Below, piece by piece: positions 4,766-63,378 of a stretch of 64,000 nt of DNA. Source of the DNA: Candidatus Nomurabacteria bacterium. Lineage in GTDB: Bacteria > Patescibacteriota > Minisyncoccia > Phycocordibacterales > UBA9973. Every line of letters begins with the position of its first letter. Position 1 is the stretch's first letter. Location of the stretch: assembly GCA_016199805.1 (NCBI GenBank), contig JACQGC010000004.1, positions 19,816-83,815 of the forward strand. The letters are read 5' to 3'. Position numbers and translations under genes: made by a program. The notes under the pieces were generated by a model. The model saw only the letters and a program-made list of their open reading frames with translations, had not been told where the DNA came from and searched no databases.

Positions 4766-4844
4766 CAACCCCCTAAATCCCCCTTGTCAGGGGGACTCCC
4801 CAATTTTCCATCCCCTGATAAGGGGAGGGTTAGGGAGGGGTTGT
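4766..4844. repeat. GC-rich palindromic element with terminal inverted repeats CAACCCC/GGGGTTG and two internal hairpins
   Basis: TCCCCC-TTGTCA-GGGGGA and TCCCCT-GATA-AGGGGA hairpins; GGTTAGGGAGGGGTTG tail resembles other family members. Confidence 0.6.
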
Positions 4845-5737: not shown

Positions 5738-6241
5738 TTATTTTTTAATTCCTAATAATTCTACTTCAAAGGTCAAAGTGGCGTTTGGAGGAATGACTCC
5801 GCCGGCGCCCGCGGCTCCGTAACCATCGGCTGGCGCTATCACCAAAGTTTTCTTTTCACCGACTTTCATTCCTACTATTCCTTTATCCCAGCCAGGAATT
5901 ACTTGTCCGGCACCCAAAGTAAAAATAAAGGGCTGGACGTGTTTGAATTTCGGGTCAACATTTGAATCGAAAACTGTGCCGTCTGCTAATCGTCCGGTGT
6001 AATTCATCGCAACCGTATCACCTGTTTTTGCCACTGTGCCGAGTGGAGCGGAACCCTCGGGAACTTGCCCTGTCGGAGCGGGAGTGGGAGTTGCGTTGTC
6101 TGCTACATTATTTACTGAGTTGTTTGTATTATTATTTACTGCCATATTTGGTTTATTTTTTATACTGATAAAAACTATAGCACCTATTAAAACCAGACAA
6201 ATTACCACTGCCAAAACTATATTCATCTTTTTATTTTCCAT
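5738..6241 (-). CDS. FKBP-type peptidyl-prolyl cis-trans isomerase, membrane-anchored
   Basis: GDTVAMNYTGRLADGTVFDS...GAGQVIPGWDKGIVGMKVGEKK...ATLTFEVELL FKBP signature; N-terminal TM helix. Confidence 0.9.
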   Translation of the reverse strand: MENKKMNIVLAVVICLVLIGAIVFISIKNKPNMAVNNNTNNSVNNVADNATPTPAPTGQVPEGSAPLGTVAKTGDTVAMNYTGRLADGTVFDSNVDPKFKHVQPFIFTLGAGQVIPGWDKGIVGMKVGEKKTLVIAPADGYGAAGAGGVIPPNATLTFEVELLGIKK

Positions 6242-6294: not shown

Positions 6295-7371
6295 TTACAC
6301 AATATTGACTTCGGGCTTTAATTCCAGCCCAAATTTTTCTTTCACCGAGGCTATGATTTTATTGGCCAATTCGATGATTTCTTCACCTTTTGCGCCACCG
6401 TGGTTTACCAAAACCAAGGCTTGCTTGTCGTGCACGCCGACATTCCCCATCCTTCTCCCCTTCCAACCGCATTGCTCTATCAGCCATCCGGCTGGAATTT
6501 TGTACTGTATTTCCCCCCTCTCCTTCGCAAGGAGAGGGGTTGGGGGTGAGGTCATATTTTCTTCTTCAAAGTGTGGAATTTCCGGATATTTTTTTTTGAG
6601 TATTTCCAATTCTGTTTTCGTCACAAAAACATTTTTAAAAAAGCTTCCGGCGTTGCCTATTATTTTCGGGTCGGGTAGTTTGCTTCTGCGTATCTCTGCC
6701 ACAGCGTCGCTGATATTTTTAAGTGTTGTTGTTTTGTTGGTTTTTTCCAAATAATCAGACAGAATCTTGTAAGAAACGTTTGGCTTTGGTGTCTTGCTTA
6801 ATTTTAAAGTCACTGCCGAAATAAAATATTTTCCTTTCAATTTATTTTTAAAAACACTATCCCTATAGCCAAGTTCGCATTCTTCACAGCTAAAAATTTT
6901 TTTCTCTCCGCTCTCAATCTCAAAAGTTTCCACACTAAAAAGAGTATCTTTGAGTTCGGCTCCGTAGGCGCCAATGTTTTGCATCGGCGCCGCACCGACT
7001 GTACCCGGAATGAGAGACAAGTTTTCAATTCCCCAATATCCTTTATCTACGGCAAACAACACAAGACCATGCCAGCTTTCACCGCCCATCGCTCTAATAT
7101 AAACACACTCTTTCCCGACCCCTGTCGGGACCCCGACTTTGGTCGGGGCTATACCTTTTACTTTATTTAAAATAACTATACCGTCGAAATCTTTTGTAAA
7201 AAGAACATTACTTCCACCACCCAAAAATATTTTTTTGTTATTTTTAAATTCAGGCGTCGCCAAAAGTTCTTTCAAGTCTTCTTCTGAATTTAACTCGACA
7301 AAAAACTTGGCGTTTACAGAAATACCGAAAGTGTTTAATTTAAGCAGATTGTAATTATTTTCTAATATCAT
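6295..7371 (-). CDS. murB: UDP-N-acetylenolpyruvoylglucosamine reductase MurB
   Basis: LGGGSNVLF, GIENLSLIPGTVGAAPMQNIGAYG and GNAGSFFKN motifs; start taken at MILENNYN (the ORF-track N-terminus overlaps the upstream gene); contains an in-frame palindromic insertion. Confidence 0.9.
   Translation of the reverse strand: MILENNYNLLKLNTFGISVNAKFFVELNSEEDLKELLATPEFKNNKKIFLGGGSNVLFTKDFDGIVILNKVKGIAPTKVGVPTGVGKECVYIRAMGGESWHGLVLFAVDKGYWGIENLSLIPGTVGAAPMQNIGAYGAELKDTLFSVETFEIESGEKKIFSCEECELGYRDSVFKNKLKGKYFISAVTLKLSKTPKPNVSYKILSDYLEKTNKTTTLKNISDAVAEIRRSKLPDPKIIGNAGSFFKNVFVTKTELEILKKKYPEIPHFEEENMTSPPTPLLAKERGEIQYKIPAGWLIEQCGWKGRRMGNVGVHDKQALVLVNHGGAKGEEIIELANKIIASVKEKFGLELKPEVNIV
6511..6553. repeat. 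palindromic element copy inserted in-frame in murB
   Basis: cccccctctcc-ttcgcaa-ggagagggg followed by ttgggggtgaggt; translated in murB as MTSPPTPLLAKERGEI. Confidence 0.65.
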
Positions 7372-7372
7372 A

Positions 7373-8647
7373 TCAATGTCCCAATGTAAAAAACATCGCC
7401 ACTGCCGCTGCCCCCATAAGCACAAAAGTACCCCAGACTAGTATGTTTGATACATTACCACTCTTGTGTTCACCCATGATTTTTTCGTTCCTGGCTATCT
7501 TGCCGATTATAAAGATAAGTGGAACGGCGGCTACGCCATTGAATACAGCGGTATAAACCAAGGCTTTAATCGGGTCTATGCCAATGAAATTTATCATCAA
7601 GCCGACAATGGTGGCGATAGTGATGACTCCATAAAATCCATGAGCTTTTTTTAATTTCAAATTCAAACTTTCTTTCCAATTTAAAGTTTCGGCGACGGCA
7701 TAAGAAGCGGAAGCGGAAAGCACCGGCACGGCCAGGAGTCCGAGCCCGATGACTCCGACGGCAAAAATCAACTTGGCTAAAAATCCCGCATATGGAAATG
7801 TATGCACCAAGGGCTCCAGGGCTTTGGCCGCGTCCGCGGCGGTGGCGATATTGGTTATGCCATGAGTGTTTAGGACTGTGGCAGCAACGACGATGATACA
7901 CCATGTGGCTATTTCCGAAGACAGCATCCCGACAAAATTATCAATTCTAAGATTTTTGAGAAAAGATTTTGTAATATGTGTCTCGCCGTGTTTTAAGAGG
8001 TGCTTAGCTCGTTCTTCTTCCACTTCTTCGGACGCTTGCCAAAAAAACATATATGGGGAAATAGTCGTTCCGAAGACACCAGTAATGATAAAAAGAAAAG
8101 CAAAACTCAATTCAATATGCGGAATGAAGGTGGCTTTTAATATCGTCAACCAGGGTTGTTTGACTAAAAATAAAGTCAAAGGATAAGCGAGCAAAGAAAA
8201 AGCCAGCCATTTCAAAATCTTGGCATATTTTTTATAGGAGATAAATATTTCCAGTGACAAAATCAGGGCGGTAAAAAAAAGTGTCAGCACTGTCAGGTTG
8301 ATTGGCAAAACAAGCTGCGCGGCGGCCGCCATCGCCCCCAAATCTGCTCCGATATTGATCGTATTGGCTAAAACAATAAGGACGACTGCCGCATAAAGCA
8401 TTTTCTTGCTGTAATTTTCTTTAATCACGGCGGCAATTCCTTTGCCAGTTACCGCCCCGATTCTGGCGCAAGCCTCCTGAATGGCGGTCATAAACGGCAA
8501 TAGCAATAAAGCTGTCCAGAGTTGCCCATAACCAAATTGCGAACCGGTCTGCGAATAAGTGGCGATGCCCGAAGGGTCATCATCCGCCGCGCCGGTAATA
8601 ATCCCCGGCCCCAGTTTTTTCCAAAAGCTTTTTCTCATATATTTCAT
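7373..8647 (-). CDS. NRAMP-family divalent metal cation transporter (MntH-like)
   Basis: GPGIITGAADDDPSGIATYSQ N-terminal signature resembling the Nramp GPGxLxxxAxxDPGN motif; 11-12 TM helices. Confidence 0.65.
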   Translation of the reverse strand: MKYMRKSFWKKLGPGIITGAADDDPSGIATYSQTGSQFGYGQLWTALLLLPFMTAIQEACARIGAVTGKGIAAVIKENYSKKMLYAAVVLIVLANTINIGADLGAMAAAAQLVLPINLTVLTLFFTALILSLEIFISYKKYAKILKWLAFSLLAYPLTLFLVKQPWLTILKATFIPHIELSFAFLFIITGVFGTTISPYMFFWQASEEVEEERAKHLLKHGETHITKSFLKNLRIDNFVGMLSSEIATWCIIVVAATVLNTHGITNIATAADAAKALEPLVHTFPYAGFLAKLIFAVGVIGLGLLAVPVLSASASYAVAETLNWKESLNLKLKKAHGFYGVITIATIVGLMINFIGIDPIKALVYTAVFNGVAAVPLIFIIGKIARNEKIMGEHKSGNVSNILVWGTFVLMGAAAVAMFFTLGH

Positions 8648-9639
8648 TTTAGCATTTTCTGCAATTTATATGCATTCCCATGTTTCAACATCCCCAAATA
8701 AGATTGAATCGTTGCTGGTTTCTGGCTATTTTTCACATTCTTAAGCATTCTCCTTTCCGTGCTAGTCCGCAAAACTCTATGCTCAGGAAAATGTACCCAG
8801 CCAAGAAAATCCACACCAGAAGCAATGGTTTTAATATAAACTTTATCTGGGTGCATTTGTAATTTTAATTTGTTTTCCAAAAATTCTTCCATTTTTTCTA
8901 ACACATTTTCTAAATACTTTTTGTCTTCACTCAAAACAACAAAATCATCAGCATATCGTATGTAATATTTCACTTTCAATTCTCTTTTTGCAAACTGGTC
9001 AAATTCATTCATATAGATATTTACTAAAAGTTGAGAAGTTAAATTACCAAGCGGTAGACCTTTTTGCATATTTACGCTATCGCGCATATATGCATCTGTG
9101 TAAAAACTGTCTATCACTTGTGAAAGTAGCCATAAAATATATATGTCAAAGACCGTCTTTGACAATATTCCTTTTAAGATTTGATGATCAATATTCGCAA
9201 AGAATTTTCGGATGTCGCATTTTAATACAAGGCAAGACCTTGTACTGTTTTTGGAAACTTTAAAAATATAGTCTTGAAATCTATTTATTGCTTTATGGGT
9301 GCCTTTGTTTACCCTGCAGGAATACGAATCATTTATAAATTTGGAGTCAAAATATTCATACAGTTCTTGGTAAATTAAATGGTGAAGCAATCTGTCTCGT
9401 ACTGTAGCTTTATGGATTATTCTTGGTTTGGGGTCAGAAATATTGAAAGCTGTGTAACCTCCGTGAGTATATGTTTTGTTTTTTAAATCATTATGTAGAT
9501 CGAGAATATTATCCATCAACTTAGCTTGAAATAGAATCACGTCTTTCCTATCTTTTTTATCATGTAAAAATTCCTGCCAAGCTTTGAGCAGTTTTTCTAC
9601 AGTTATGATATTATCGTAAGTATGCATAAATTGTTTCAT
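8644..9639 (-). CDS. DGR-type reverse transcriptase
   Basis: RT motifs DIRKFFANIDH, LPLGNLTSQLLVNIY (DGR-specific GxxxSQ motif 4), YADDFVV and FLGW thumb; no maturase or endonuclease domains; TR/VR pair adjacent. Confidence 0.85.
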   Translation of the reverse strand: MKQFMHTYDNIITVEKLLKAWQEFLHDKKDRKDVILFQAKLMDNILDLHNDLKNKTYTHGGYTAFNISDPKPRIIHKATVRDRLLHHLIYQELYEYFDSKFINDSYSCRVNKGTHKAINRFQDYIFKVSKNSTRSCLVLKCDIRKFFANIDHQILKGILSKTVFDIYILWLLSQVIDSFYTDAYMRDSVNMQKGLPLGNLTSQLLVNIYMNEFDQFAKRELKVKYYIRYADDFVVLSEDKKYLENVLEKMEEFLENKLKLQMHPDKVYIKTIASGVDFLGWVHFPEHRVLRTSTERRMLKNVKNSQKPATIQSYLGMLKHGNAYKLQKMLK

Positions 9640-9748
9640 ATTTCTCGGACCCCCCCCCGCAGCGCCTTCAGCGCTTTTAAAAACAAAAACCGCCTACTCT
9701 CTTTGGTTTAACATATATAACGATTTTCCGAAAGCGCATAGATACACC

Positions 9749-10006
9749 TTGGGTGGAAAGATTGAAGATTATTTCCTCGGGTTGTTGGAAAACATTTTCA
9801 TTTCTATTTATCTACCGCCGGAAACTAAAATTCCCCGACTTATTATCGCAATTTCTAAACTTGATGGAGTTAAGTTTTTTCTACAAATCGCTTGGGAAAA
9901 TAAATGTATTAGTAATGAAAAATATTCCCAGCTTTCAGAAAAATTAGATGAAATTGGAAAAATGCTTGGTGGTTGGAAAAAAGGCCTAGAAAAGAAAACT
10001 CCCTGA
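9749..10006 (+). CDS. Avd-like four-helix-bundle protein (short or truncated; TTG start)
   Basis: C-terminus SEKLDEIGKMLGGWKKGLEKK and LPPETK segment match the TIGR02436/Avd family pattern (..FPKDE.. / ..EEVSKMLNGL..); about 30 aa shorter than typical and on the strand opposite the RT. Confidence 0.4.
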   Translation: MGGKIEDYFLGLLENIFISIYLPPETKIPRLIIAISKLDGVKFFLQIAWENKCISNEKYSQLSEKLDEIGKMLGGWKKGLEKKTP

Positions 10007-10030
10007 ACTTAGTCAGGGAGAAACATTCTT

Positions 10031-10147
10031 AGTTTCGGAACGACGATTCGATGAGCGTACTTGGCATTCCAGACATTGCTGTTCTCAAGCGGATTGACGT
10101 TCAAGTTCAGACGACCATCGTCATACACGTTGACGTTGGCAACGAAG
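10031..10147 (-). repeat. DGR template repeat (TR), 117 nt
   Basis: Near-identical to 10523-10639; all 18 mismatches fall on TR adenines (minus strand); AAC-rich. Confidence 0.85.
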
Positions 10148-10453
10148 ATTTGTAGGATAAGCCATCTATTCCACCGCCAGCCTGAGCATAACTTAATATC
10201 AAAGACTGTGCTGTATATTATTTGAGAGCGTAAAACTCTTCCAACTCACCCCACCAACTTTTATGTTTTTTTGTTTTAAAAAAGAATTCACTCTTCCACG
10301 AGACATATCCGGCGAAATTCTCAAATTGATTTTTAAGCAATCATGTCCCAAAGCCTTGACCGTGAGCATTTCCAGATTGCGGATTTAGTATATATTAAAA
10401 TTTAAAAAGATAAAGGGTCAAAGGGAAAAAGTTTCAAAGTGACAAATGAAAAA

Positions 10454-10502
10454 CCGTTCCTCCAGGTCGGCTTTTCACCTTACTGATGGAACGGTTTGAT
10501 GT
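10454..10502 (-). promoter_or_regulatory. inverted repeat/hairpin immediately downstream of VR (candidate DGR target-recognition structure)
   Basis: ccgttcctccagg ... ctgatggaacgg (10 of 12 complementary) with a ~19-nt loop, starting ~20 nt after the target stop codon. Confidence 0.5.
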
Positions 10503-10518
10503 TGAAACAGAAACAAAG

Positions 10519-11199
10519 TTACAGTTGCGGAACGACGACCCGATGAGCGCACCTGGCACCCCAGACATTGCTGAACTCAAGCGGATCGACGCCCAAGTCC
10601 AGACGACCATCGCCACACACGCTGACGCCGGCAACGAAGAAGCCGCCGTTTTCCCCCTCAAACAGGAAGAAGGTACCGTAGCCCTCTGCACGAAGATACT
10701 CGCGGTTGCGAGGATCTCGACAGAATGCCACGATTTGCGACTCCTGCCAGCAGAGACGTTTCAGATTCTCGCCGAAGCCTCCGAAGACCTGTGCGTAAGT
10801 ACCGTCTTTGATCATGTAGTAGACGGCTAGGACGGTTTTTTTCGTTGCCTTGCAGACTCCACGCTTCGCGGCTCCGTAGATGCCCGCATTGAAAACGTCA
10901 TTTGCTTCTGCCAGCGTCTCCTTCCCGTCGGTTTCCGCGAGCTCAATTGTGCGATCGGCAAACAAACGCTTGAGCCGCCCGACCACGTTCTCCGCGAGCT
11001 CGGCGAGAATAGTCTTCACCGTAGCTTTCACCACTGCCGCGATTTTATCACCCTGAGTCAATACCCGCTGAAAGTTATCGCCGTGGAGCACCCCGTTGGC
11101 GGAGAGCTCGATTACTGCCTCGTCTACTACCTTGCGGGTCGCAGACGCCACAACCGTCATCAACTGCTCTTTTCTTTCGAGTGTAATCATGCTGGGCAT
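10519..11199 (-). CDS. DGR target protein with C-terminal variable region (CLec/FGE-like fold inferred)
   Basis: VR occupies the last ~39 codons (..GYGTFFLFEGENGGFFVAGVSVCGDGRLDLGVDPLEFSNVWGARCAHRVVVPQL); higher GC than flanking genes. Confidence 0.8.
   Translation of the reverse strand: MPSMITLERKEQLMTVVASATRKVVDEAVIELSANGVLHGDNFQRVLTQGDKIAAVVKATVKTILAELAENVVGRLKRLFADRTIELAETDGKETLAEANDVFNAGIYGAAKRGVCKATKKTVLAVYYMIKDGTYAQVFGGFGENLKRLCWQESQIVAFCRDPRNREYLRAEGYGTFFLFEGENGGFFVAGVSVCGDGRLDLGVDPLEFSNVWGARCAHRVVVPQL
10523..10639 (-). repeat. DGR variable repeat (VR) at the 3' end of the target gene
   Basis: 117-nt match to the TR with 18 substitutions, exclusively at TR-adenine positions (A to G 15, A to T 2, A to C 1); ends 2 nt before the stop codon. 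Confidence 0.85.
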
Positions 11200-12880: not shown

Positions 12881-12942
12881 CTTTTATTTCATAATTTTTT
12901 CACCCCTTCTTTTATAGGATTTGATATGAAGGAGTACCTGGT

Positions 12943-13095
12943 ATGCAGTGGGTAGAAGCTTGGTTCACGGCAATAAAGCTCTTCGTAGTCGCGATCTTGG
13001 GTATATTCGTCTTGGTCATCAGAAAGTTTTCCAGGCGGACCCAAGACAGGGACGAGATGAAGAAAAACGTGAGGAGAAATGAAGACAGGTTATAA
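12943..13095 (+). CDS. small single-TM protein (50 aa) with strong RBS
   Basis: GAAGGAG 8 nt upstream of ATG; MQWVEAWFTAIKLFVVAILGIFVLVIRKF TM helix; followed by a strong terminator. Confidence 0.35.
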   Translation: MQWVEAWFTAIKLFVVAILGIFVLVIRKFSRRTQDRDEMKKNVRRNEDRL

Positions 13096-13108
13096 GCCCA
13101 AAGCGAAA

Positions 13109-13143
13109 GAGGCGCCAACGATCCGTTGGCGCCTCGCTTTTTA
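13109..13143 (+). terminator. rho-independent terminator
   Basis: GAGGCGCCAACG-ATC-CGTTGGCGCCTC perfect 12-bp stem followed by a T-run. Confidence 0.7.
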
Positions 13144-13383
13144 TAGATGCCTCGGCCTTGCATTGGAATATAATATATAAACCAAGGCCGTTATGAAAGA
13201 ACTACGCTCGCAACATATTGTTGTTTTTTCGCATAATCTCATTTCAAGAGCAAGGCACGACTGGCCCGTCAAGTTGTCCTTCGCGTATGCTCACGCATAA
13301 GCTCCAGATCTCCCTCAAGGCCAACTCGCCCGGGGTGAAATAAAATAGTTTGAAAAACAAAATATAAATGCGAGGCTAAAGAA

Positions 13384-25922: not shown

Positions 25923-26717
25923 TTATTTTATCACTTTTTCAAACTCCTTCGGAATTTTAGATTCTATTTTTACTGTTTTGCCTTTCATATCTTTAAATTC
26001 TATGGATTTGGCATGCAGAAACATGCGGATTCCTTTTTTTTCCTCCCCTGCGAAGGGGAGGCGTAGGAGGGGTGAACTTTTTGGATTATAAAGCGCATCT
26101 CCCGCCACCGGATGATTTAAAAATTTCATATGCACGCGAATTTGATGTGTCCGACCGGTTTTTGGTTTTAGTTCCAAATAGGTAAATTTCCTCCCCTCCT
26201 TATTGAGGAGGGGCTTCGGGGTGGTGATTTCTAATCTCTTGAGTACTTTGTATTCCGTAATCGCCTCCCGCATCTCTCCCCTAGCGCCGCGACCTGCCAA
26301 GCGGCGGCGAAAATCCGAAGGACTGCGGCCAATGGGTTTGTTTATCACTCCGCGGTCTTCTTTTACCCAACCGTCTACAATAGCTACATAAGTTTTTTTA
26401 ATATCTCTGCCCATAAATTGATTTTTTAAAAACTCATGCGCTTTTTGGTTTTTTGCCAAAAGCATTACTCCGGAAGTTCCGCGGTCCAGTCTGTGAACAA
26501 TGCCCGGCCGGTCTATTTCCCCCATCGGCTCCCCTACACCTTTCATTTTCGGATAATTTTTGATTATCCAACTAGTGATAAAAGTTTCTTTTTTTTTGCC
26601 ATCAGCGCCTGCCCCGTAGTGAGCTTGCTCTACTGCGGGGTGCACAGAAATGCCCCAAGGCTTTTCAATGGCCAAAATGTCTTTATCTTCGTATAAAACT
26701 TTGATTTTCATATGCAT
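25923..26717 (-). CDS. RluA-family pseudouridine synthase
   Basis: PGIVHRLDRGTSGVMLLAKN catalytic motif; carries two in-frame palindromic-element insertions. Confidence 0.85.
   Translation of the reverse strand: MHMKIKVLYEDKDILAIEKPWGISVHPAVEQAHYGAGADGKKKETFITSWIIKNYPKMKGVGEPMGEIDRPGIVHRLDRGTSGVMLLAKNQKAHEFLKNQFMGRDIKKTYVAIVDGWVKEDRGVINKPIGRSPSDFRRRLAGRGARGEMREAITEYKVLKRLEITTPKPLLNKEGRKFTYLELKPKTGRTHQIRVHMKFLNHPVAGDALYNPKSSPLLRLPFAGEEKKGIRMFLHAKSIEFKDMKGKTVKIESKIPKEFEKVIK
26038..26076. repeat. palindromic element copy inserted in-frame in the RluA-family gene
   Basis: cctcccct-gcga-aggggagg followed by aggaggggtgaac; encodes ..SSPLLRLPFAGEEKKG.. Confidence 0.6.
26189..26228. repeat. second palindromic element copy inserted in-frame in the RluA-family gene
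   Basis: cccctcct-tattg-aggagggg followed by cttcggggtggtga; encodes ..TPKPLLNKEGRKF.. Confidence 0.6.
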
Positions 26718-31992: not shown

Positions 31993-32337
31993 TTATTTTG
32001 CCCGTGCGCCAGCCGGAATTTCATTATTTGGCTCAAGTAAAGAAAATTTACCGTCTTCTGTAGAAACGGCTAGTATCATCCCCTGGCTTTCAATTCCCCG
32101 AATCATCCTGGGTTCCAAATTGGCGACAAACATGCATTTTTTACCCACTAAAACGGAGCAATCGGGAAAATACAAAGAAATTCCGGAAACAATTGTTCGT
32201 GGAGTGGCTTCACCCAAATCAACCGAGAGTTTCAAAAGCTTGTCTGTCTCCGGAACTTTTTCCGCCGACAAAATCTTCCCCACGGCGATATCTATTTTTT
32301 TAAAATCTTCTAATGTAATCATAAATACATTATACAC
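31993..32337 (-). CDS. tRNA-binding domain protein (CsaA/EMAP-like)
   Basis: DIAVGKILSAEKVPETDKLLKLSVDLGE...IVSGIS typical OB-fold tRNA-binding domain. Confidence 0.65.
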   Translation of the reverse strand: MYNVFMITLEDFKKIDIAVGKILSAEKVPETDKLLKLSVDLGEATPRTIVSGISLYFPDCSVLVGKKCMFVANLEPRMIRGIESQGMILAVSTEDGKFSLLEPNNEIPAGARAK

Positions 32338-32406
32338 CTCACCCCTTTCCCCTCTCCATTTTCTTAAAATGGAGAGGGGTGGCTCGCTTGCGAGACGGGG
32401 TGAGGT
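32336..32406. repeat. full-length intergenic palindromic element (reference copy)
   Basis: ACCTCACCCC-ttt-CCCCTCTCCATTTT-ctta-AAAATGGAGAGGGG-tgg-CTCGC-ttg-CGAG-ac-GGGGTGAGGT; nested inverted repeats. Confidence 0.7.
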
Positions 32407-32843
32407 TAATGGTTATTAATTTTATCAAGATAACGTTGCAATATCAAAGCCGCCGCGGAGGCGTCTATACGGCCGGACTTTATTTGCTTCACCCGGCTAT
32501 GCGAGTGGGAAGGACTCAAATCATTTTTGCTATTCCCTGCTTTGCGCGCTTCTACTGAAGTCAAAAATTCTTTTTGTTTATGAATGGGTAAATTGAATTT
32601 CTCCTGCAACTCCAAAATAAAAACTTCAATCCGTCCCGACAAAGCATTCAACTTCCCAGAAAAATCGATTGATTCCCCGATGACTATTTCTTTTATATTT
32701 TCTTTTTTGATTATCTCGGCAAACTTTTTAAGAACGTTTGCATCGTTCAAAACAATCTCCTTAGGAAAAGCCAAGGTGTGATTTTCGTCCGAAATAGCCA
32801 CCCCAATCCGCTTTGTGCCGTAATCAATGCCTAAAAATCTCAT
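32406..32843 (-). CDS. ruvX: Holliday junction resolvase-like protein RuvX/YqgF
   Basis: MRFLGIDYGTKRIGVAISD N-terminus, ~145 aa. Confidence 0.85.
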   Translation of the reverse strand: MRFLGIDYGTKRIGVAISDENHTLAFPKEIVLNDANVLKKFAEIIKKENIKEIVIGESIDFSGKLNALSGRIEVFILELQEKFNLPIHKQKEFLTSVEARKAGNSKNDLSPSHSHSRVKQIKSGRIDASAAALILQRYLDKINNH

Positions 32844-48822: not shown

Positions 48823-49469
48823 TGCGAATTAACAAGTATTTAGCCGATAAAAAAATATCTACCCGCCGGGGCGCGGATGAACTTGTAAAAAATAAGAAGG
48901 TTTTTATCAATGGTAAACTGGCCGAACTCGGCAGCCAGGTAAACGAAAGCGACGAAGTGGAAGTAAAAAACGCCAAAGCTAAAAATTACCAGTATTTTGC
49001 TTACAATAAGCCCATCGGCATAGAAACAGACTCTCCAAAAACGGGCTTATTTCCTCTGGGTCGCCTGGATAAGGCCTCTCATGGCCTTTTGATACTGACC
49101 AACGACGGACGCATCACCGACCAACTCTTAAATCCAAAATACATTCACGAAAAAGAATACTTGGTCCGAACTTCCAATAAACTCCGTTCAAACTTCAAAG
49201 CGAAAATGGAAGCCGGAGTGAATATAGAGGGTTATGAAACCAAGCCATGCAAAGTGAAAATATTAAACGACTTTGAATTCAGAGTAACCTTAACAGAAGG
49301 CAAGAAACACCAAATCCGCCGCATGTGCGCGAACCTTTTCCAAGAAATAGCCGACCTGAAAAGAGAAAGAATTATGAATATAAAATTGGGCAATCTGAAA
49401 CTTGGCGGAGTGAGAGAAATAAATGGTGAAGAATTGAAAACTTTTTTGGATTCATTGCTCAAAATTTAA
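48822..49469 (+). CDS. rsuA: RsuA/RluB-family pseudouridine synthase with S4 domain
   Basis: S4 domain MRINKYLADKKISTRRGADELV..; catalytic GRLDKASHGLLILTNDG. Confidence 0.85.
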   Translation: MRINKYLADKKISTRRGADELVKNKKVFINGKLAELGSQVNESDEVEVKNAKAKNYQYFAYNKPIGIETDSPKTGLFPLGRLDKASHGLLILTNDGRITDQLLNPKYIHEKEYLVRTSNKLRSNFKAKMEAGVNIEGYETKPCKVKILNDFEFRVTLTEGKKHQIRRMCANLFQEIADLKRERIMNIKLGNLKLGGVREINGEELKTFLDSLLKI

Positions 49470-49505
49470 TTTTTTAAAAACTTACTACACGCAAACTTCA
49501 ATCAT

Positions 49506-50345
49506 CTATTCAATCCACGGTGTAGCCTTTATTGCTACTACTATATGCCAAAAATCTTTGTTGCTGAATTGGGCAAATGCAGAATAAGAAGTGAAGGTAT
49601 TAATTTTATGAATATTGAAAGTAAATCTAATCATTCCTTTATATTCTTTAAAACGATATTTGCTTAAACTTACCATCTCACTCATTCCGTTTGGTCCCCC
49701 ATGTATATAAGATGAAAGCTCTGAATATTCTGGAATAATCATTTCAATAAAACTATTTTTAGCATATGTAACATTTTTTAATAAATAAGCAACCATTTCT
49801 CTATAATTAAATTGCTGTGACTTTTTCTTTATTTCTTCTTTAGAATATTTCCCTAAATCAGCTCTGTGTTTGATTAACAAGTCCCATGGATCCTTTTTGC
49901 TTTCCTGAGAAGAAAGAATTTCCAATAACCATTTTAAGGAATTACCATATTTCACATCTTCATCAAAAGAACAAAAGGTGTTGTACTCTTGACCCACTGT
50001 ATCCGTTTTTTCACTAGTTAACCTTGCGAATATATAATTTGCCTTTATCCAATGCTCCATCATTATTATATAAAGAGCTTTTGCGGTAATCATGTTATCA
50101 TTTTCACATTCATCAAATATACCCAATTTAATACTATTCATCCTCCAGAGTAAATTTAAAAGAGCCTGTAAACTTTGTTTCATTGGTGAATCTTTTATTG
50201 ACTCAAAAACAATAACCATGGAATTGCTGAACAACTTAAAAAGCTCATCATCTTTATCTCGAGCTGTTTCAAGCCATTCTAGGAATTTCTCTCTTTCTTT
50301 TTCTTGTAAGTCTAATTCTTTTTTGTTTCCAAATTTATTTTTCAT
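49506..50345 (-). CDS. hypothetical protein (AT-rich orphan; no recognisable motif)
   Basis: 279-aa ORF with markedly lower GC than its neighbours. Confidence 0.35.
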   Translation of the reverse strand: MKNKFGNKKELDLQEKEREKFLEWLETARDKDDELFKLFSNSMVIVFESIKDSPMKQSLQALLNLLWRMNSIKLGIFDECENDNMITAKALYIIMMEHWIKANYIFARLTSEKTDTVGQEYNTFCSFDEDVKYGNSLKWLLEILSSQESKKDPWDLLIKHRADLGKYSKEEIKKKSQQFNYREMVAYLLKNVTYAKNSFIEMIIPEYSELSSYIHGGPNGMSEMVSLSKYRFKEYKGMIRFTFNIHKINTFTSYSAFAQFSNKDFWHIVVAIKATPWIE

Positions 50346-50394
50346 ACTTTATAAAAACACTACTACTAGTACCCCCTTTTAGCAAACGAATTTT

Positions 50395-50482
50395 TTTCCT
50401 CTCCTTTCCATGAGATGGTTAGGGTGAGGTTGTTCCCCTCGCCAGTACTATGGAGAGGGGTTGGGGGTGAGGTTTTAGTGAT
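50395..50482. repeat. composite intergenic palindromic element
   Basis: cctctcc..ggttagggtgaggttg..cccctc-gccagtactatg-gagagggg-ttgggggtgaggtttt. Confidence 0.6.
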
Positions 50483-50492
50483 GTCTGAATTT

Positions 50493-51989
50493 CTATTTTT
50501 CCAAATCCAAAATTTCATCAATCCTGATTTGTTTGACAAATTCGGGTACGTGGGAGACTAATATCATCGCGCCTTTGTATTTGTCCAGCGCTTCGGCTAT
50601 TATCGGCAGATGGCGGAAGTTTATGTGGTTGGTCGGCTCGTCCAGGATGAGCAGCCCTGGCTTTTGGAGCACCAGTCTGGCAAAGGCCACCAGCCCTTTT
50701 TGTCCCTCGGACAAATCATCAATCTTGGTGCGGATAAATTCTCCGGTGATGAGGAATCCCGCAGCCACAGAACGCATATGCTCTTCGTTCAGTCTCTCTC
50801 CCCCTTCCAGCATCGCTTGCGACAGGGATTGATATACAGTATCGTCAAAATTCAGCGTAGAAAAATCTTGGCGGTAATATCCGATACGGATTCCTTCGGC
50901 CACTTTTTCTCCCTCGGCATGCCCGCTCGCCAACCTTTCCAGCAACGTGGTCTTACCAATACCATTTGGCCCTTGTAATAGCAGATGGTGTCCTTTATTT
51001 AAAGAAATATTGCATTTGCGTTTGGCAATTTTGCCGTTTTTCATCGTGGTGAAAGAAGAAATTTTTAAAATCTCTCCTATCAGGTCCGGCTGGGCGGGAA
51101 TAACAAAAGGCCGAATGGATTTGTCCTCTTTACGCACGTCTACAATCTCTTCTTCCAGTTCCTCGGCTTTCTCGCGCATCCGTTTGGCCACCAGGCGCAA
51201 CCGTCCGCCCTTGTAAGCGAAAACGTTGGCCTGTTCTTTCTTGGCCTGAATTTCTTTTTGCAGCTGCGCGTTTTTCATATTTTCTTTTTCCACCCTAGCG
51301 GTGATGTCTCTCACCACGTTGAAATAGTTTCCGACATACTGCTCTATTTTTTTGGTGTAAACATCCAGATAAAGCACGCCTTCAGTGAAGGCATTCAAAA
51401 ATTCCGCGTCGTGGGAAATGACCAGCACTGTTTTTTTGTAATTTACCAAAAAATTTGTCAGGTGGGCGATGCCCGCTTTGTCCAAATTGTTTGTCGGCTC
51501 GTCCAAGAGGAGCAGGTCCGGGTCTTGGATGAGGGCGGAAGCCAAAAGCAAACGTGCTTGCTGACCGCCGGAAAAAGTTTTGATAATTCTATCGTGAACT
51601 TTTGTGTGCCCTTTCAGATTTACCACTTCCAAAACATCGTCAATCTTTGGGTCTAAGTCATACACCTTATTTTTAAAACATTTGGCAAAAAATTCCCGCA
51701 CTGTCAGGTCGAGCTCATTCCTCTGAATAATTTGGTTGGCGGAAGCGATACTGACTCCGTTCACAATATTTATGATTCCCGATTCCGGCTTATATAAACC
51801 GGAAATCAAGCCAAAAATAGTACTTTTGCCGGCGCCATTCTGGCCCATCAGGGCGAATTTCATCCCCCGGCGAATAGTAAAACTTACTCCATCCAAAATG
51901 GGTTTATTCACGTCCCATTCAAATGAAACATTATCAAATCTGGCTATTGTTTCTTGATTTTTTATGTTTTCCTTGGGCTCCTTGGACAT
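50493..51989 (-). CDS. ABC-F family ATPase (tandem ABC domains, no TM)
   Basis: Two Walker A (GQNGAGKSTIFG, GPNGIGKTTLLERL) and two signature motifs (LSGGQQARLLLASAL, LSEGQKGLVAFARL). Confidence 0.85.
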   Translation of the reverse strand: MSKEPKENIKNQETIARFDNVSFEWDVNKPILDGVSFTIRRGMKFALMGQNGAGKSTIFGLISGLYKPESGIINIVNGVSIASANQIIQRNELDLTVREFFAKCFKNKVYDLDPKIDDVLEVVNLKGHTKVHDRIIKTFSGGQQARLLLASALIQDPDLLLLDEPTNNLDKAGIAHLTNFLVNYKKTVLVISHDAEFLNAFTEGVLYLDVYTKKIEQYVGNYFNVVRDITARVEKENMKNAQLQKEIQAKKEQANVFAYKGGRLRLVAKRMREKAEELEEEIVDVRKEDKSIRPFVIPAQPDLIGEILKISSFTTMKNGKIAKRKCNISLNKGHHLLLQGPNGIGKTTLLERLASGHAEGEKVAEGIRIGYYRQDFSTLNFDDTVYQSLSQAMLEGGERLNEEHMRSVAAGFLITGEFIRTKIDDLSEGQKGLVAFARLVLQKPGLLILDEPTNHINFRHLPIIAEALDKYKGAMILVSHVPEFVKQIRIDEILDLEK

Positions 51990-54598: not shown

Positions 54599-54640
54599 GA
54601 ACCTCACCCCTGCCCCTCTCCTTGTTAAGGAGAGGGGTTT
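54599..54640. repeat. intergenic palindromic element (left-arm variant)
   Basis: aacctcacccc-tg-cccctctcctt-gtta-aggagagggg-tt. Confidence 0.65.
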
Positions 54641-55229: not shown

Positions 55230-55266
55230 CTTCCCTCTCATTCCAGGAGAGGGCTAGGGTGAGGTT
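55230..55266. repeat. intergenic palindromic element (right-arm variant)
   Basis: ccctctc-attccag-gagaggg-ctagggtgaggtt. Confidence 0.6.
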
Positions 55267-59429: not shown

Positions 59430-60701
59430 CTAAATCAAGAAGTTTCTATTCCTTAGATTTTTGTGATACGCTATCGCGAATCTGTGCGCTTCGCTGTTTG
59501 ATAGCAGGATTTCTCTTTTATATTTTTTAGTAAATTCGCTCGCTCCGAGAATGTCTTTGGGTTTGTGTTTTTCGTCTTTCAATACTGCCACCACGGGGAT
59601 TTTTAGGCCAAGTTTTTTCAAGACAGACATTCCTGCGTGCAGCTGCGCCACTCCGCCATCCACAACAATCAGGTTCGGATACTGCCACTCCGTATGCGCC
59701 AGGCGCCTTTCCAGCACTTCTGTGAGCGCGCCCGTGTCGTTGGCATTATTTTGCGTTCTGATTTTGAATTTTTTATATTCATTCTTTGCCACTTCCCCAT
59801 CTTCTACCACTGTCATCACGCCCACCATATTTTTTCCTCCCATGTGCGCTATGTCATAAGATTCTATTCTAGCGAATGAAACAGGAAAATTTTTATCCGT
59901 GTGGGACCCACCTCGTACTCGAGGAAGGGAGGAGCGGGAAAAATTTTCCTGTTTCAGGAGCGCCACATCATTTATGTGCTGCAAGGCAAACATTTGCCTT
60001 TTTATTTCTCCCGCTTTTTCAAATTCACGAGCCTTCGCATAATCTTTCATTTCTTTTTTTAGATTTTGCAAAATTTGCTGTTTTTTGCCGGAAAAAAATA
60101 ATTTTATATTCCGAATATTCTGCATATACAGTTTTCTGTCTTTTAAATCCGGCACCAGATTTATTTGTTTGTAAAATTCTAGATAATTTTTACTTTTGTC
60201 ATCCAGGAAGGGAAAAATCCGGCGAATAATTTTCATCGCCTCGCGAAGCTGTGGCCCACTGGTATAAGGCCCATATATTTTGTTAAACACCGAGTGTTTA
60301 ACATTTCTACCTCGCACAACAATTACTCTAGGTAATTCCTCCCCGCCTGCTCCCGAACCATCGTGAGGGCGGGCAGGTTTGGTTATGCAAACATAATTAA
60401 AACTTTTATCATCTTTTTCCCTGGTGTTGTAATAAGGTTGATGTTTCTTAATCAGTTGCGCCTCTAAAATGAGGGCTTCGAGAACACTATCCGTCTCTTG
60501 CCAATCTATTTTATCCGCCTTGTAAACCATATCCACTAAAAGCGGACCCCTGGTCTCAATCAAATCTTTTGAAAAATAACTTTTTGTGCGGTCTTTGAGT
60601 GAAGTGGCTTTGCCGATATAGAGAATTTGCTTCTTGTGCTTAAAGAAATAAACCCCTGGCTTGTCTGGAAGTTTTGATTTTTTATGATATTTGATATCCA
60701 T
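59430..60701 (-). CDS. uvrC: excinuclease ABC subunit C (UvrC), compact form
   Basis: GIY-YIG N-terminus LPDKPGVYFF..ILYIGKATSLKDRTKSYF; position adjacent to uvrA. Confidence 0.7.
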   Translation of the reverse strand: MDIKYHKKSKLPDKPGVYFFKHKKQILYIGKATSLKDRTKSYFSKDLIETRGPLLVDMVYKADKIDWQETDSVLEALILEAQLIKKHQPYYNTREKDDKSFNYVCITKPARPHDGSGAGGEELPRVIVVRGRNVKHSVFNKIYGPYTSGPQLREAMKIIRRIFPFLDDKSKNYLEFYKQINLVPDLKDRKLYMQNIRNIKLFFSGKKQQILQNLKKEMKDYAKAREFEKAGEIKRQMFALQHINDVALLKQENFSRSSLPRVRGGSHTDKNFPVSFARIESYDIAHMGGKNMVGVMTVVEDGEVAKNEYKKFKIRTQNNANDTGALTEVLERRLAHTEWQYPNLIVVDGGVAQLHAGMSVLKKLGLKIPVVAVLKDEKHKPKDILGASEFTKKYKREILLSNSEAHRFAIAYHKNLRNRNFLI

Positions 60702-60702
60702 T

Positions 60703-63378
60703 TTATTTTCTTAGTACTTTTTTGAGATATTTGCCAGTATAACTTTTTGCATTGTTTGCCACCTCCTCCGGTGTGCCCTTAGCCACGATATTTCCGCCAT
60801 TCACTCCCCCTTCCGGCCCTATATCTATTATATAATCCGAACTCTTCACGATGTCCAGGTTGTGTTCTATCAGCACCACAGTGTTGCCGTGCGACACGAG
60901 CTTGTTTAAAACCTCCAGAAGTTTGTGCACATCATCATAGTGCAAGCCAACCGTCGGCTCGTCTAAAAGATAAATCGTTTTCTCGGTGTGCGGACGATAC
61001 AGCTCGCTAGATATTTTTACGCGTTGCGCTTCTCCTCCAGAGAGAGTCGTAGCAGATTGGCCGAGCTCCACATAACCCAAGCCCACATCGAGCAAGGTTT
61101 GCAGCCGGTCGGAAACCGCCGGAATATCTTTAAAAAAGGTCAGGCCTTCTTCCACAGTCATATGCAACACTTCATAAATATTTTTCTTTTTGTATTTTAT
61201 CGTCAGAGTTTCCTTATCAAATCTTTTTCCGCCACACACGTCGCAGGTTACATAAACGGTTGGTAAGAAATGCATCTCCACAGCAATTTCTCCGTTGCCT
61301 TCGCAGGCCTCACAGCGTCCGCCTTTTACGTTGAAAGAAAAGCGGTTGGATTTCCAGCCACGTAGCCGCGCTTCTTCAGTTGTAGCGAAAAGATCACGAA
61401 TGTGGGTGAAAGCGCCTGTGTAAGTCGCAATGTTTGAACGCGGCGTGCGGCCGATGGGGCTCTGGTCTATCAAAATCACCCGGGAAATATATTCCGTGCC
61501 GGAAAAAGACGAACAATTAAAAACTTGTGCCGTGCGATATTTGCGTTCCAGTCGCCCCTGGAGATTTTTATAAAGAATTTCGTACATGAACGAACTCTTG
61601 CCCGAACCGGAAACACCGGTGATGGAGGTCATCACGCCGAGGGGCACTTCCACATTCATATTGTTTATATTGAAAACTTTTCCACCCGTGACCCTTAGCA
61701 CCCCTTTCGCCTGCCGTCTCTTTTTGGGAATTTCTATTTTTATTTCATCACGCAGGTAAGCCAGGGTTCTCGAATTGTTTGTATTTTTCTTGGCAGTCAA
61801 TAAATCTTCCAAATAGCCCGACACAATTACTTCTCCGCCGTGCACTCCCGCCTTGGGACCGATGTCCACTATAAAATCCGAAGCGTAAATAGTGTCTTCG
61901 TCATGCTCCACGATTATTATCGTATTTCCCAAATCACGCAGGTTTTGTAAGGTTTTTATCAGGCGGTCGTTGTCCCGTTGATGTAGGCCAATCGTCGGTT
62001 CATCCAGCACATACAATGCGCCTACGAGCCTGGAGCCGAGTTGTGAAGCCAGGCGAATGCGTTGCGCCTCCCCGCCAGAGAGCGTATTGGCTTTACGGGA
62101 GAGTTGTAAATAGTCCAAACCGACATCGAGCATGAACTGCAAGCGCGCTTCTATTTCTTTGACGATAGGCACGGAAATTTCTTTCTCTTGTTCGGAAAGT
62201 TTTAGATTTTTGAAAAAATCATGCGCGTCTTTGATGGAAAGAGAAGATAAATCCAGAATATTTATTTTTTTATGCGACGCTTCTAAAAATACGTTCAGCG
62301 CCTCGGGTCGTAAACGCGCGCCATGACATGCCTCGCAGGGTTCATCGCCCATGAAATATTTCGAACCGAGGCCGTTACAGGCCGGGCAAGCGCCGTAAGG
62401 AGAATTGAAGGAAAATAATCTTGGCTCCACTTCCGGAAAAGAAAAACCGTCGTTCTTGCAGGCAAACTTGGCGGACATGATAAATTCATCATCACCTATT
62501 TTTATAGCCACTAGGCCGTCGGACTCAATCAAGGCCCGCTCTATGGCTTCCGCCAGACGCATCCGGCTGCCGTCTTTGTTGTCGGAAAATTCATGCACCG
62601 CAAAATGATCCACCAAAATATCTATGTTGTGGGCTTTGTTTTTGGAAAGAGTGATTTGCTCGCGTAATTTTTTCATCACTCCATCCAGACGGATTTCAGC
62701 AAAACCTTTGCCAAGTAAATCATAAAGCAATTGGTAATATTCCCCTTTGCGTCCGCGGACCACTGGAGAAAAAATACTGATTTCGGTATTATCCCATTCC
62801 ACGCCCATGACTTTGCGCTTGCCCTCTCCTCCTTTCGGAGGAGGAGTGCCCTTTAGGGCGAGGTGGTTCTTTTTAGAATTACCACCCCCTGCCCCCTCCT
62901 TAATCAAGGAGGGGAGGGTAAAATCTTTCACTTTCCCCAACACAAAATTCAAAATTTCTTCATTAGAAAGTTTTTTGATTTCCTCGCCACAAAGCGGACA
63001 GTGCGGGTGCCCGATGCGGGCATACATCACCCGTAGGTAATCATAAATCTCGGTAATCGTCGCCACTGTGGATCGCGGGTTATTGGAGCGGGATTTTTGG
63101 TCAATGGAAATCGCCGGCGATAAACCGGTGATTTCATCCACGTCCGGCTTGGGCATTTGATTCAAAAATTGCCGCGCGTAAGAAGACAGAGACTCCACAT
63201 ATCGCCTCTGCCCTTCGGCAAAAATGGTATCAAAAGCGAGCGAACTCTTTCCGGACCCGGAAACCCCGGTGATGACCACCATTTTATTGCGTGGCATCTC
63301 CACATCAATATTCTTCAAATTGTGTGTCCTAGCCCCTTTTATTGTTATTTTATCTATGTTTTTATCAAGTTTTGTCAT
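60703..63378 (-). CDS. uvrA: excinuclease ABC subunit A (UvrA)
   Basis: Duplicated ABC ATPase with GVSGSGKSS Walker A motifs, zinc fingers ([21 protein letters not shown]), 891 aa; carries an in-frame palindromic insertion. Confidence 0.95.
62821..62918. repeat. composite palindromic element inserted in-frame in uvrA
   Basis: ctctcctcc-tttc-ggaggagg .. tagggcgaggtgg .. ccccctcctt-aatc-aaggagggg; encodes [31 protein letters not shown]. Confidence 0.65.

Follow-up and report, generated by a model that had tools for sequence, protein, structure and literature searches.

Between the stop codon of ruvX and a gene for a protein with a tRNA-binding domain, in a 64-kb stretch of a Candidatus Nomurabacteria genome (contig JACQGC010000004.1; hereafter the window, to which all counts for the host are confined), lies a GC-rich hairpin with a G-rich tail on either side. 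It belongs to a family of small repeats present at nine loci of the window, among them sites within uvrA, murB and a gene of the RluA family. The repeats are of a known kind, the BoxC/PIT/TM elements, and what is new is their habit of residing inside genes in the manner of the Rickettsia palindromic elements (RPEs). Homologues of UvrA, MurB and RluA at 85-100% identity carry the labels Candidatus Nomurabacteria, Paceibacteria or Minisyncoccia, and the host is a Nomurabacteria-like bacterium of the Candidate Phyla Radiation (CPR, Patescibacteria); Logan contigs of run SRR12113408 are identical to parts of the window. A preliminary description had listed the nine loci as nested GC-rich palindromes in an AT-rich genome. 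All nine hold the described sequences, far above chance expectation, and, as it stated, they are dispersed GC-rich hairpins of one family in which the stems are conserved and the loops vary freely; the genome is AT-rich to a moderate degree, the window having a G+C content of ~42%.

On one strand, each of the nine loci parses as a pyrimidine arm (Y), a loop, a purine arm (R), a short linker and a G/T-rich tail (H), schematically CCCCTCTCC-loop-GGAGAGGGG-NNN-GGGGTGAGG and, for instance, CCCCTCTCC-ttcgcaa-GGAGAGGGG-ttg-GGGGTGAGG. In the common unit the loop spans 3-5 nt and the linker 1-3 nt or a second small hairpin, some loops and linkers being longer, and the unit measures 33-45 nt. The tail mirrors the purine arm, G facing G and A facing either A or T, and in most copies it is complementary to nothing. 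Hence, it could lie antiparallel to R as the reverse-Hoogsteen third strand of a purine-motif triplex (G.G-C, A.A-T and T.A-T). In folding as single-stranded DNA, a calculation that covers Watson-Crick pairs only, every single unit that was folded formed the hairpin and left the G-rich tail unpaired. The nested-palindrome anatomy therefore needs revision, since the block GGGGTGAGGT, formerly read as an outer stem, is the mirror of the purine arm. The full nested form ACCTCACCCC...GGGGTGAGGT exists only at 32336-32406, and the other copies have one tail; furthermore, 4766-4844 resolves into three units and 62821-62918 into two, and 50395-50482 is intact only in its right half (50435-50473).

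The units were counted with a rule-based scanner for the three blocks (Y-R-H), which allowed at most one mismatch in the duplex and at most one in the third strand and which recovers each of the nine loci; it was chosen, together with shuffle controls, because a covariance model cannot represent the Hoogsteen relation between arm and tail. The null model consisted of dinucleotide shuffles, 100 for the window and five for a set of relatives comprising 80 syntenic loci from related metagenomic genomes (1.16 Mb; locus numbers carry the prefix L), every one picked around uvrA, in which L038, L039 and L040 are near-duplicate genomes. With arms of at least 9 nt, the window holds 11 units and its 100 shuffles none, and the related loci hold 68 units, in 20 of the loci, against none in each of the five shuffles; arms of 7 nt do arise by chance, at 2.8 per shuffle. 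Single blocks are in excess as well: GGAGAGGGG, with up to one mismatch, occurs 13 times in the window (7.2 expected) and GGGGTGAGGT 10 times (2.0 expected), counts that none of the 100 shuffles reaches, and the three-block pattern CCTCTC..GAGAGG..GGGTGAGG has five matches where 0.00 are expected. The density of one copy per 7 kb given in the preliminary description stands for this window and does not extend to the relatives, which average one unit per 17 kb, 60 of the 80 loci having none.

The mirror relation between arm and tail was assessed on 144 hairpins with an 8-bp purine-rich arm, collected blind to their flanks, which avoids circularity. Of these, 55 (38%) have a perfect mirrored tail (8/8) in the 40 nt 3' of their own purine arm and none (0/144) has one on the 5' control side, and when the arm of another hairpin is compared with the same flank, 2.6% of comparisons score 8/8. 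An own matching tail was found for 20 distinct arms, including the arm/tail pairs GGAGAGGG/GGGTGAGG, GGAGGGG/GGGGTGG, GGGGAGG/GGAGGGG, GGAGGAG/GAGGTGG and GGGGGAGG/GGTAGGGG; the tail thus covaries with its own arm over 20 arm variants. The arms are also more conserved than the loops: in six relatives that share an orthologous uvrC site, identity is 93-100% over the three arms, 53-58% over loop and linker and 64-82% over the flanking coding DNA.

Table 1. Units of the repeat family in the window; blocks are given in the order Y, loop, R, linker, H, with loops and linkers in lower case.
Feature	Position	Strand	Arms, blocks and fold	Setting
Triplex-motif unit (scanner)	4768..4796	-	arms 8 nt: GTCCCCCT / AGGGGGAT / TAGGGGGT	intergenic; directly downstream of SIMPL/DUF541 gene, upstream of secE
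Weak unit, part of the 4766-4844 composite	4797..4827	-	arms 7 nt (a length also seen by chance)	
Triplex-motif unit	4808..4841	+	arms 9 nt: CCATCCCCT gata AGGGGAGGG tta GGGAGGGGT	
murB unit	6514..6552	+	arms 11 nt: CCCCCTCTCCT tcgca AGGAGAGGGGT t GGGGGTGAGGT	in frame within murB (6295-7371, -); encodes TSPPTPLLAKERGE
First RluA-family unit	26041..26073	+	arms 9 nt: TCCTCCCCT gcga AGGGGAGGC gt AGGAGGGGT	in frame within RluA-family gene (25923-26717, -); encodes SSPLLRLPFAGEE
Second RluA-family unit	26192..26225	+	arms 9 nt: TCCCCTCCT tattg AGGAGGGGC tt CGGGGTGGT	in frame within the same gene; encodes TTPKPLLNKEGRK
Copy beside ruvX	32336..32410	both	single hairpin 32349-32379 with a tail on either side, giving one Y-R-H unit per strand (-, 32336-32380; +, 32349-32410); + strand linker is a second small hairpin (CTCGCTTGCGAG); fold -28.8 kcal/mol, z = -8.9	intergenic; between ruvX stop codon (overlaps base 32406, the last base of a tail) and tRNA-binding-domain gene
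Degenerate unit	50395..50430	+	CCTCTCC...GAGATGG tta GGGTGAGG; missed by scanner	
Intact unit	50435..50473	+	arms 10 nt: CCCCTCGCCA gtacta TGGAGAGGGG ttg GGGGTGAGGT	intergenic; between stop of ABC-F-type gene and accessory ORF (open reading frame)
Unit	54600..54637	-	arms 11 nt	intergenic, between divergent rpsT and ruvA; alignments to relatives L012, L021 and L030 break here
Unit	55233..55265	+	arms 9 nt: CCCTCTCAT tcc AGGAGAGGG cta GGGTGAGGT	between convergent ruvA and amidase gene; linker CTA is the amidase TAG stop codon, tail encodes the final three amidase residues
uvrA unit 1	62824..62867	+	arms 10 nt; linker is a second hairpin (GCCCTTTAGGGC)	in frame in uvrA (60703-63378, -)
uvrA unit 2	62880..62915	-	arms 10 nt: TCCCCTCCTT gatt AAGGAGGGGG ca GGGGGTGGTA	in frame in uvrA

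Of the 11 window units, five are part of the reading frame of conserved genes, two in uvrA, one in murB and two in the RluA-family gene, and four of the nine loci are in-frame insertions that are absent from most homologues; the other five loci are intergenic, mostly adjoining a stop codon. The two uvrA units form a tail-to-tail doublet, which adds 27 codons and is present at the orthologous position in L045 and L008. In alignments of 120 close homologues per protein, the UvrA site is empty in many and occupied in others by the doublet of the window, by a single canonical unit (PSPSQGEGRGEV) or by an unrelated palindromic element. At the MurB site most homologues read FEE-DG-IIKIPAGW with no insert and others carry different unit-coded peptides, and in RluA the two unit segments are short in 101 (that of 26041..26073) and ~62 of 121 aligned sequences. 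The three sites are therefore insertion hot spots. An AlphaFold model of MurB, with a mean predicted local distance difference test score (pLDDT) of 84, falls below 50 only at residues 79-84 and 272-285, which are the two palindrome-coded inserts of this protein, the latter being that of the unit at 6514..6552. When window and relatives are taken together, 67 of 79 units lie in a stop-free stretch of at least 150 codons, compared with 77% of random positions; genes in the relatives and in all other loci are such stop-free stretches and not annotated genes. These 67 show no orientation bias, the C-rich strand being coding in 36 and the G-rich strand in 31. The arms contain no possible stop codon, except TGA in one frame of the tail, and translate into Pro/Ser/Leu-rich or Gly/Glu/Lys/Arg-rich peptides. 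What is unusual here is that many units reside in frame inside essential genes (uvrA, murB and rluA) in this tiny-genome bacterium (Patescibacteria) and its relatives, and literature searches for palindromic repeats in connection with Patescibacteria found nothing relevant.

For about 30 years BoxC/PIT/TM repeats have been on record with no function assigned to them, and the BoxC/PIT/TMECO type, on which Bachellier in the 1990s and Hoyne and Maher in 2000 and 2002 reportedly worked, has relatives in cyanobacteria and archaea. We know of no in vivo evidence for a triplex formed by these repeats. As the tail mirrors the purine arm, the units described here are placed with this type and not with the repetitive extragenic palindromic sequences and bacterial interspersed mosaic elements (REP/BIME) or the Correia elements. 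Holder et al. (2015) define class II purine-motif intrastrand triplex motifs and give, for the Escherichia coli element first called BoxC and then PIT, the TMECO consensus CCCTCNCCC N3-6 GGGNGAGGG N3 GGGNGAGGG, and count 23 copies of it in E. coli K-12 and 3610 across 262 genomes of Proteobacteria (PMC4666352). As a single strand, this element forms a stable triplex in vitro by circular dichroism (CD) and nuclear magnetic resonance (NMR); it has no promoter or terminator activity and no associated transposase, is 'always' intergenic and is associated with local genome variability (PMC4666352). The units of the window and its relatives share the class II layout, with the same block order in 79 of 79 units (11 and 68, respectively), a loop of 3-6 nt, a linker of ~3 nt and a mirrored G-rich tail, and they resemble BoxC further in being multi-copy, in their conserved arms and free loops, in the pairing of inverted units, in having no transposase family among the window ORFs scanned and in their patchy copy number. 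The core GGAGAGGG-N3-GGGTGAGG is common to BoxC and to window copies such as 55233-65, where it is identical to that of E. coli. In contrast to BoxC, however, the units are shifted by one base in register, have many other arm variants and in part longer loops and linkers (a second hairpin can act as the linker), belong to a Patescibacteria lineage and mostly carry no canonical G-quadruplex (G4) motif. Also, whereas BoxC is reported as 'always located intergenically', five of the 11 window units and most units of the relatives lie in frame in genes or long ORFs. A BoxC-like sequence composed from the published consensus matches 5409 of 5426 complete E. coli genomes at a median of 18 places, and BLAST of a window unit against E. 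coli genomes gave essentially nothing.

We consider it likely that the units are triplex repeats of the BoxC/PIT/TM class, which fold on transient single strands, are non-autonomous, are constrained in their arms and are tolerated in protein loops. In such a scheme, Y and R would pair as a Watson-Crick hairpin, and H would occupy the major groove, antiparallel to R and bound in reverse-Hoogsteen triples. The fold would form transiently whenever replication, transcription, repair or another process leaves the G-rich strand single, and, were the fold itself selected or recognised, the elements could persist and multiply as small non-autonomous selfish repeats. Their mobile unit may well be a doublet bounded by inverted tails (ACCTCAYCCCC...GGGGTGAGGT), similar to the REP doublets known as REPINs. 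Within genes, the units would survive because their arms can have no stop codon in five of the six frames and encode flexible Pro/Ser/Gly/Glu/Lys-rich peptides, and because only copies whose length is a multiple of three would be tolerated, in permissive surface loops.

Several observations weigh against this interpretation. Formation of the triplex in vitro is known only for the E. coli relative, and that element formed no stable triplex in double-stranded DNA (CD/NMR) or by dimethyl sulfate (DMS) footprinting in vivo (PMC4666352). Nothing in the window matches the strict TMECO consensus, so that the units are a sequence variant and not the E. coli TMECO itself. G-rich arms are nearly self-symmetric, which makes mirror matches partly cheap, and 17% of the cross-arm controls reach 7/8. 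The constraint on intragenic arms could in part reflect peptide selection or concerted evolution between copies. The uvrA-centred choice of relatives and the near-duplicates among them mean that hot-spot copies inflate the intragenic count, and the evidence from this genome spans 64 kb. No target-site duplication was seen at four doublets of L036 (described below) or at the uvrA sites, and no target motif either. Lastly, the cognate transposase that the preliminary description thought might accompany the repeats, or any other mobilising enzyme, was not found: the window ORFs scanned with Pfam, several of which have no Pfam match at all, gave no transposase, REP-associated tyrosine transposase (RAYT) or Y1 family.

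An alternative, which we regard as improbable, is that the R and H blocks act as a switch between a G4 and a hairpin. The E. coli BoxC consensus is a canonical four-run G4 motif and is the repeat proposed to form a G4, and repeats of related layout in the archaeal Methanomicrobiaceae switch in vitro between hairpin, antiparallel triplex and G4 (PMC8044849). The latter also consist of repeated G-rich blocks with an adjacent complementary C-rich block; their C-rich block, however, lies 3' of the G runs (class I-like), the opposite of the order found in 79 of 79 units here, and they are reported as intergenic (PMC8044849). A two-tetrad G4 would be possible in 63 of the 79 units, but four runs of at least three G occur in only two, and thus the canonical G4 is not the conserved feature in this clade. 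Moreover, the mirror is kept position by position, including A to A/T, over 20 arm variants, for which a quadruplex has no need. What is conserved is the triplex symmetry and not the four-stranded motif. Given the many arm variants with matched tails, the conserved arms against drifting loops and the few canonical G4 motifs, the choice between triplex, quadruplex and plain hairpin can be tested by comparison and with a few oligonucleotides.

There is a slimmer chance that the units are hairpins of the REP/BIME type, bearing a GTAG or CGTC tag and mobilised by a RAYT, a likeness suggested in the preliminary description. Like REPs, the units are scattered GC-rich hairpins of small size whose stems are conserved, and doublets occur; the intragenic REPs of Di Nocera et al. 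(2013) cluster in uvrA, uvrB and genes for pseudouridine synthases, the gene classes seen here (PMC3733652). Yet a GTAG/CGTC-type tag lies within 6 nt of either end in only one of 73 units, so that REP/RAYT membership fails; the conserved single-stranded block is an arm mirror of 8-11 nt and not a tetranucleotide; and, besides the lack of a Y1 family in the Pfam-scanned window ORFs, all-against-all ORF clustering revealed no recurrent neighbouring protein in 120 genome loci of other phyla. The comparison with the Correia elements did not hold up either. These repeats of Neisseria are 100-155 bp long and have 26-bp terminal inverted repeats and a TA target duplication, whereas the units measure less than half of that, have no 26-bp inverted repeats of the Correia type and, at the L036 doublets and uvrA sites, no target duplication.

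The likeness to RPEs was borne out for behaviour and not for family membership. RPEs were reportedly described by Ogata et al. in 2000, RPE-1 being said to measure ~100-150 bp. Like them, the units are selfish-looking palindromic repeats of a reduced genome that lie in frame in housekeeping genes, add short peptides and vary in presence between close relatives, and the gene classes concerned (uvrA, uvrB, uvrC and pseudouridine synthases) recall both RPEs and intragenic REPs. RPE-4 and RPE-6 are CGTC-tagged REPs (PMC3733652). The units, in contrast, are shorter, have no GTAG/CGTC tag and possess the mirrored third block, and so are likened to RPEs by behaviour and not by sequence.

With respect to their spread, the related locus L036 contains four near-identical doublets of ~70 nt (ACCTCATCCCCC...GGGGTGAGGT), alike even in their loops, with sharp ends and unrelated flanks, at 6114-6179, 6528-6593, 9203-9262 and 10899-10969 within 21 kb, some of them inside or beside uvrA. 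By their sequence, they look like a recent burst of duplicative copying of the type known from REPINs and from miniature transposable elements with inverted repeats (MITEs). REPINs, according to what Bertels and Rainey reportedly described in 2011, are doublets of two inverted REP units that form a larger hairpin and are the apparent replicating unit. The L036 doublets resemble them in this respect; REPINs, however, have a cognate RAYT and GTAG-type ends, neither of which was found here, in the Pfam-scanned window ORFs and, with one exception, in the 73 units, respectively.

The prospect that the repeats act as RNA, be it as intrinsic terminators, mRNA-stabilising 3' hairpins or a small structured RNA similar to whalefall-1, is slimmer again. 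The intergenic loci with their stop-codon neighbours would suit such a role, and the hairpin would form in RNA. Whalefall-1 (RF01762; Weinberg et al. 2010) is a candidate non-coding RNA from metagenomes only, whose function is not known (PMC2864571), and its consensus, CUCUCC-loop-GGAGAG, a second hairpin and CAGGGUGAGGAC, has the layout of the 32349-32410 unit, which likewise runs hairpin, hairpin, GGGUGAGG. The match to 32346-32407 is weak, however, at 19.5 bits (E = 0.003), far under the gathering score of 37, and other window copies are without the second hairpin. At gathering threshold, Rfam finds six tRNAs and no other family in the window, thus none for the units, and permissive thresholds add the weak whalefall-1 match and microRNA noise. 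Most units of the clade lie in coding sequence in either orientation; an RNA hairpin would have no use for the conserved mirrored tail, and RNA is reported not to form purine-motif triplexes (PMC4666352). The terminator reading in particular was rejected, as the terminator scan flags no unit as a gene-end terminator, a G-rich tail and not a T run follows the hairpin and many copies are intragenic. Finally, the probability that there is no element, only G/C-rich words clustered by chance or composition, or conserved protein motifs mistaken for DNA repeats, is practically nil: the arms are of low complexity and the shortest arise by chance, but the excess of longer arms over shuffles in window and relatives, the covariation of arm and tail, the homologues without units and the occurrence of units in intergenic DNA and unrelated genes, in both orientations and different frames, refute it.

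Beyond the assignment to the BoxC/PIT/TM class, we put forward a bolder and more doubtful proposal, namely that the single-stranded triplex fold could be the unit that is selected or recognised, for instance as a substrate for structure-specific mobilisation or fork restart, and that elements found domain-wide might be a major recurrent source of in-frame peptides in housekeeping proteins of Patescibacteria (UvrA, UvrC, MurB and RluA). If the fold is the unit of selection, the comparison across the clade would be the first evidence of relevance in vivo for a DNA triplex of the purine motif; the in-frame peptides would be an RPE-like phenomenon that a second lineage with a reduced genome had acquired independently. 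Repeats of this kind also occur outside intergenic DNA and, in ultra-small Patescibacteria, are written into essential proteins. This bears on gene calling, on protein-family alignments, in which they may appear as spurious low-complexity inserts, on quality control of metagenome-assembled genomes and on how reduced genomes tolerate selfish DNA.

The core pattern is widespread. With one genome per species scanned, it occurs in at least 120 genome stretches, and the matches listed come from Bacteroidota, Alphaproteobacteria, Verrucomicrobiota, Cyanobacteria, six CPR lineages, Chloroflexota, Armatimonadota and one archaeon, with the pyrimidine arm upstream in 116 of 131 core matches among those listed. 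By a crude check of the loci from other phyla (L082-L201) with a G+C content below 50%, 24 of 74 core matches, from Bacteroidota, Cyanobacteria and other CPR lineages, lie in long stop-free stretches, and in-frame residence may not be special to this clade. Among viral contigs, the core is present in 87 stretches, with the Y arm in 87 of 101 matches. Several full units occur on some predicted viral contigs (L231, L236, L241 and L259 (IMGVR_UViG_3300048778_000586); L240 and L272; L207), and one viral contig of 51.6 kb has eight core matches. These viral copies could represent a route between hosts or simply be host-like sequence.

Other variable or palindromic segments were seen as well. The units at 50395-50482 form part of a block of ~1 kb (49455-50493), which also contains an ORF (49506-50345) with a weak DUF5677 match; the block is absent in L004, L007, L017 and L020, where the two convergent flanking genes abut, and L015 has a different gene at the site. 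In uvrC (59430-60701, -), an unrelated in-frame palindromic element of 80 nt (59877-59956) with perfect 18-nt terminal inverted repeats (TGAAACAGGAAAATTTTT...AAAAATTTTCCTGTTTCA) encodes ENFSRSSLPRVRGGSHTDKNFPVS and occupies the site at which six relatives have a triplex unit. Many relatives have, at the uvrA hot spot, a similar 'KKNFSG..QNSSS' element with the inverted repeat GGGAAGAAGAATTCT. A further short GC-rich segment of uvrC (60327-60380), KPARPHDGSGAGGEELPR, is in frame and has the inverted repeat CCTCCCCGCC/GGCGGGCAGG. In murB, the tandem hairpins TCCCGAC cccT GTCGGGA / CCCCGAC tttg GTCGGGG at 7111-7149 encode APTKVGVPTGVGK in frame, an insert that a minority of the 120 MurB homologues possess and that is modelled with low confidence (residues 79-84); their stems contain CGAC/GTCG and are reminiscent of CGTC-type REPs. 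The in-frame segment AVEQAHYGAGADG of rluA (26598-26636) is missing in 80 of 121 aligned sequences, and no inverted repeat was found in it. The repair genes ruvA, fpg, uvrC, uvrA and uvrB are clustered in the 54659-65900 region and in L290, with ruvX at 32406, and several of them have palindromic inserts, which echoes the published bias of intragenic REPs to repair genes (PMC3733652).

Elsewhere in the window, a perfect 12-bp GC-rich hairpin of another kind (GAGGCGCCAACG atc CGTTGGCGCCTC) lies at 13109-13135, at the 5' end of the ORF 12912-13163. A complete diversity-generating retroelement occupies 8644-11199 (-) and comprises a reverse transcriptase (8644-9639; Pfam RVT_1), a template repeat (10031-10148) with a hairpin directly downstream (9999-20) and a variable repeat (10523-10640) at the 3' end of the ORF 10519-11199; all 18 mismatches between the two repeats (18/18) fall at template adenines.

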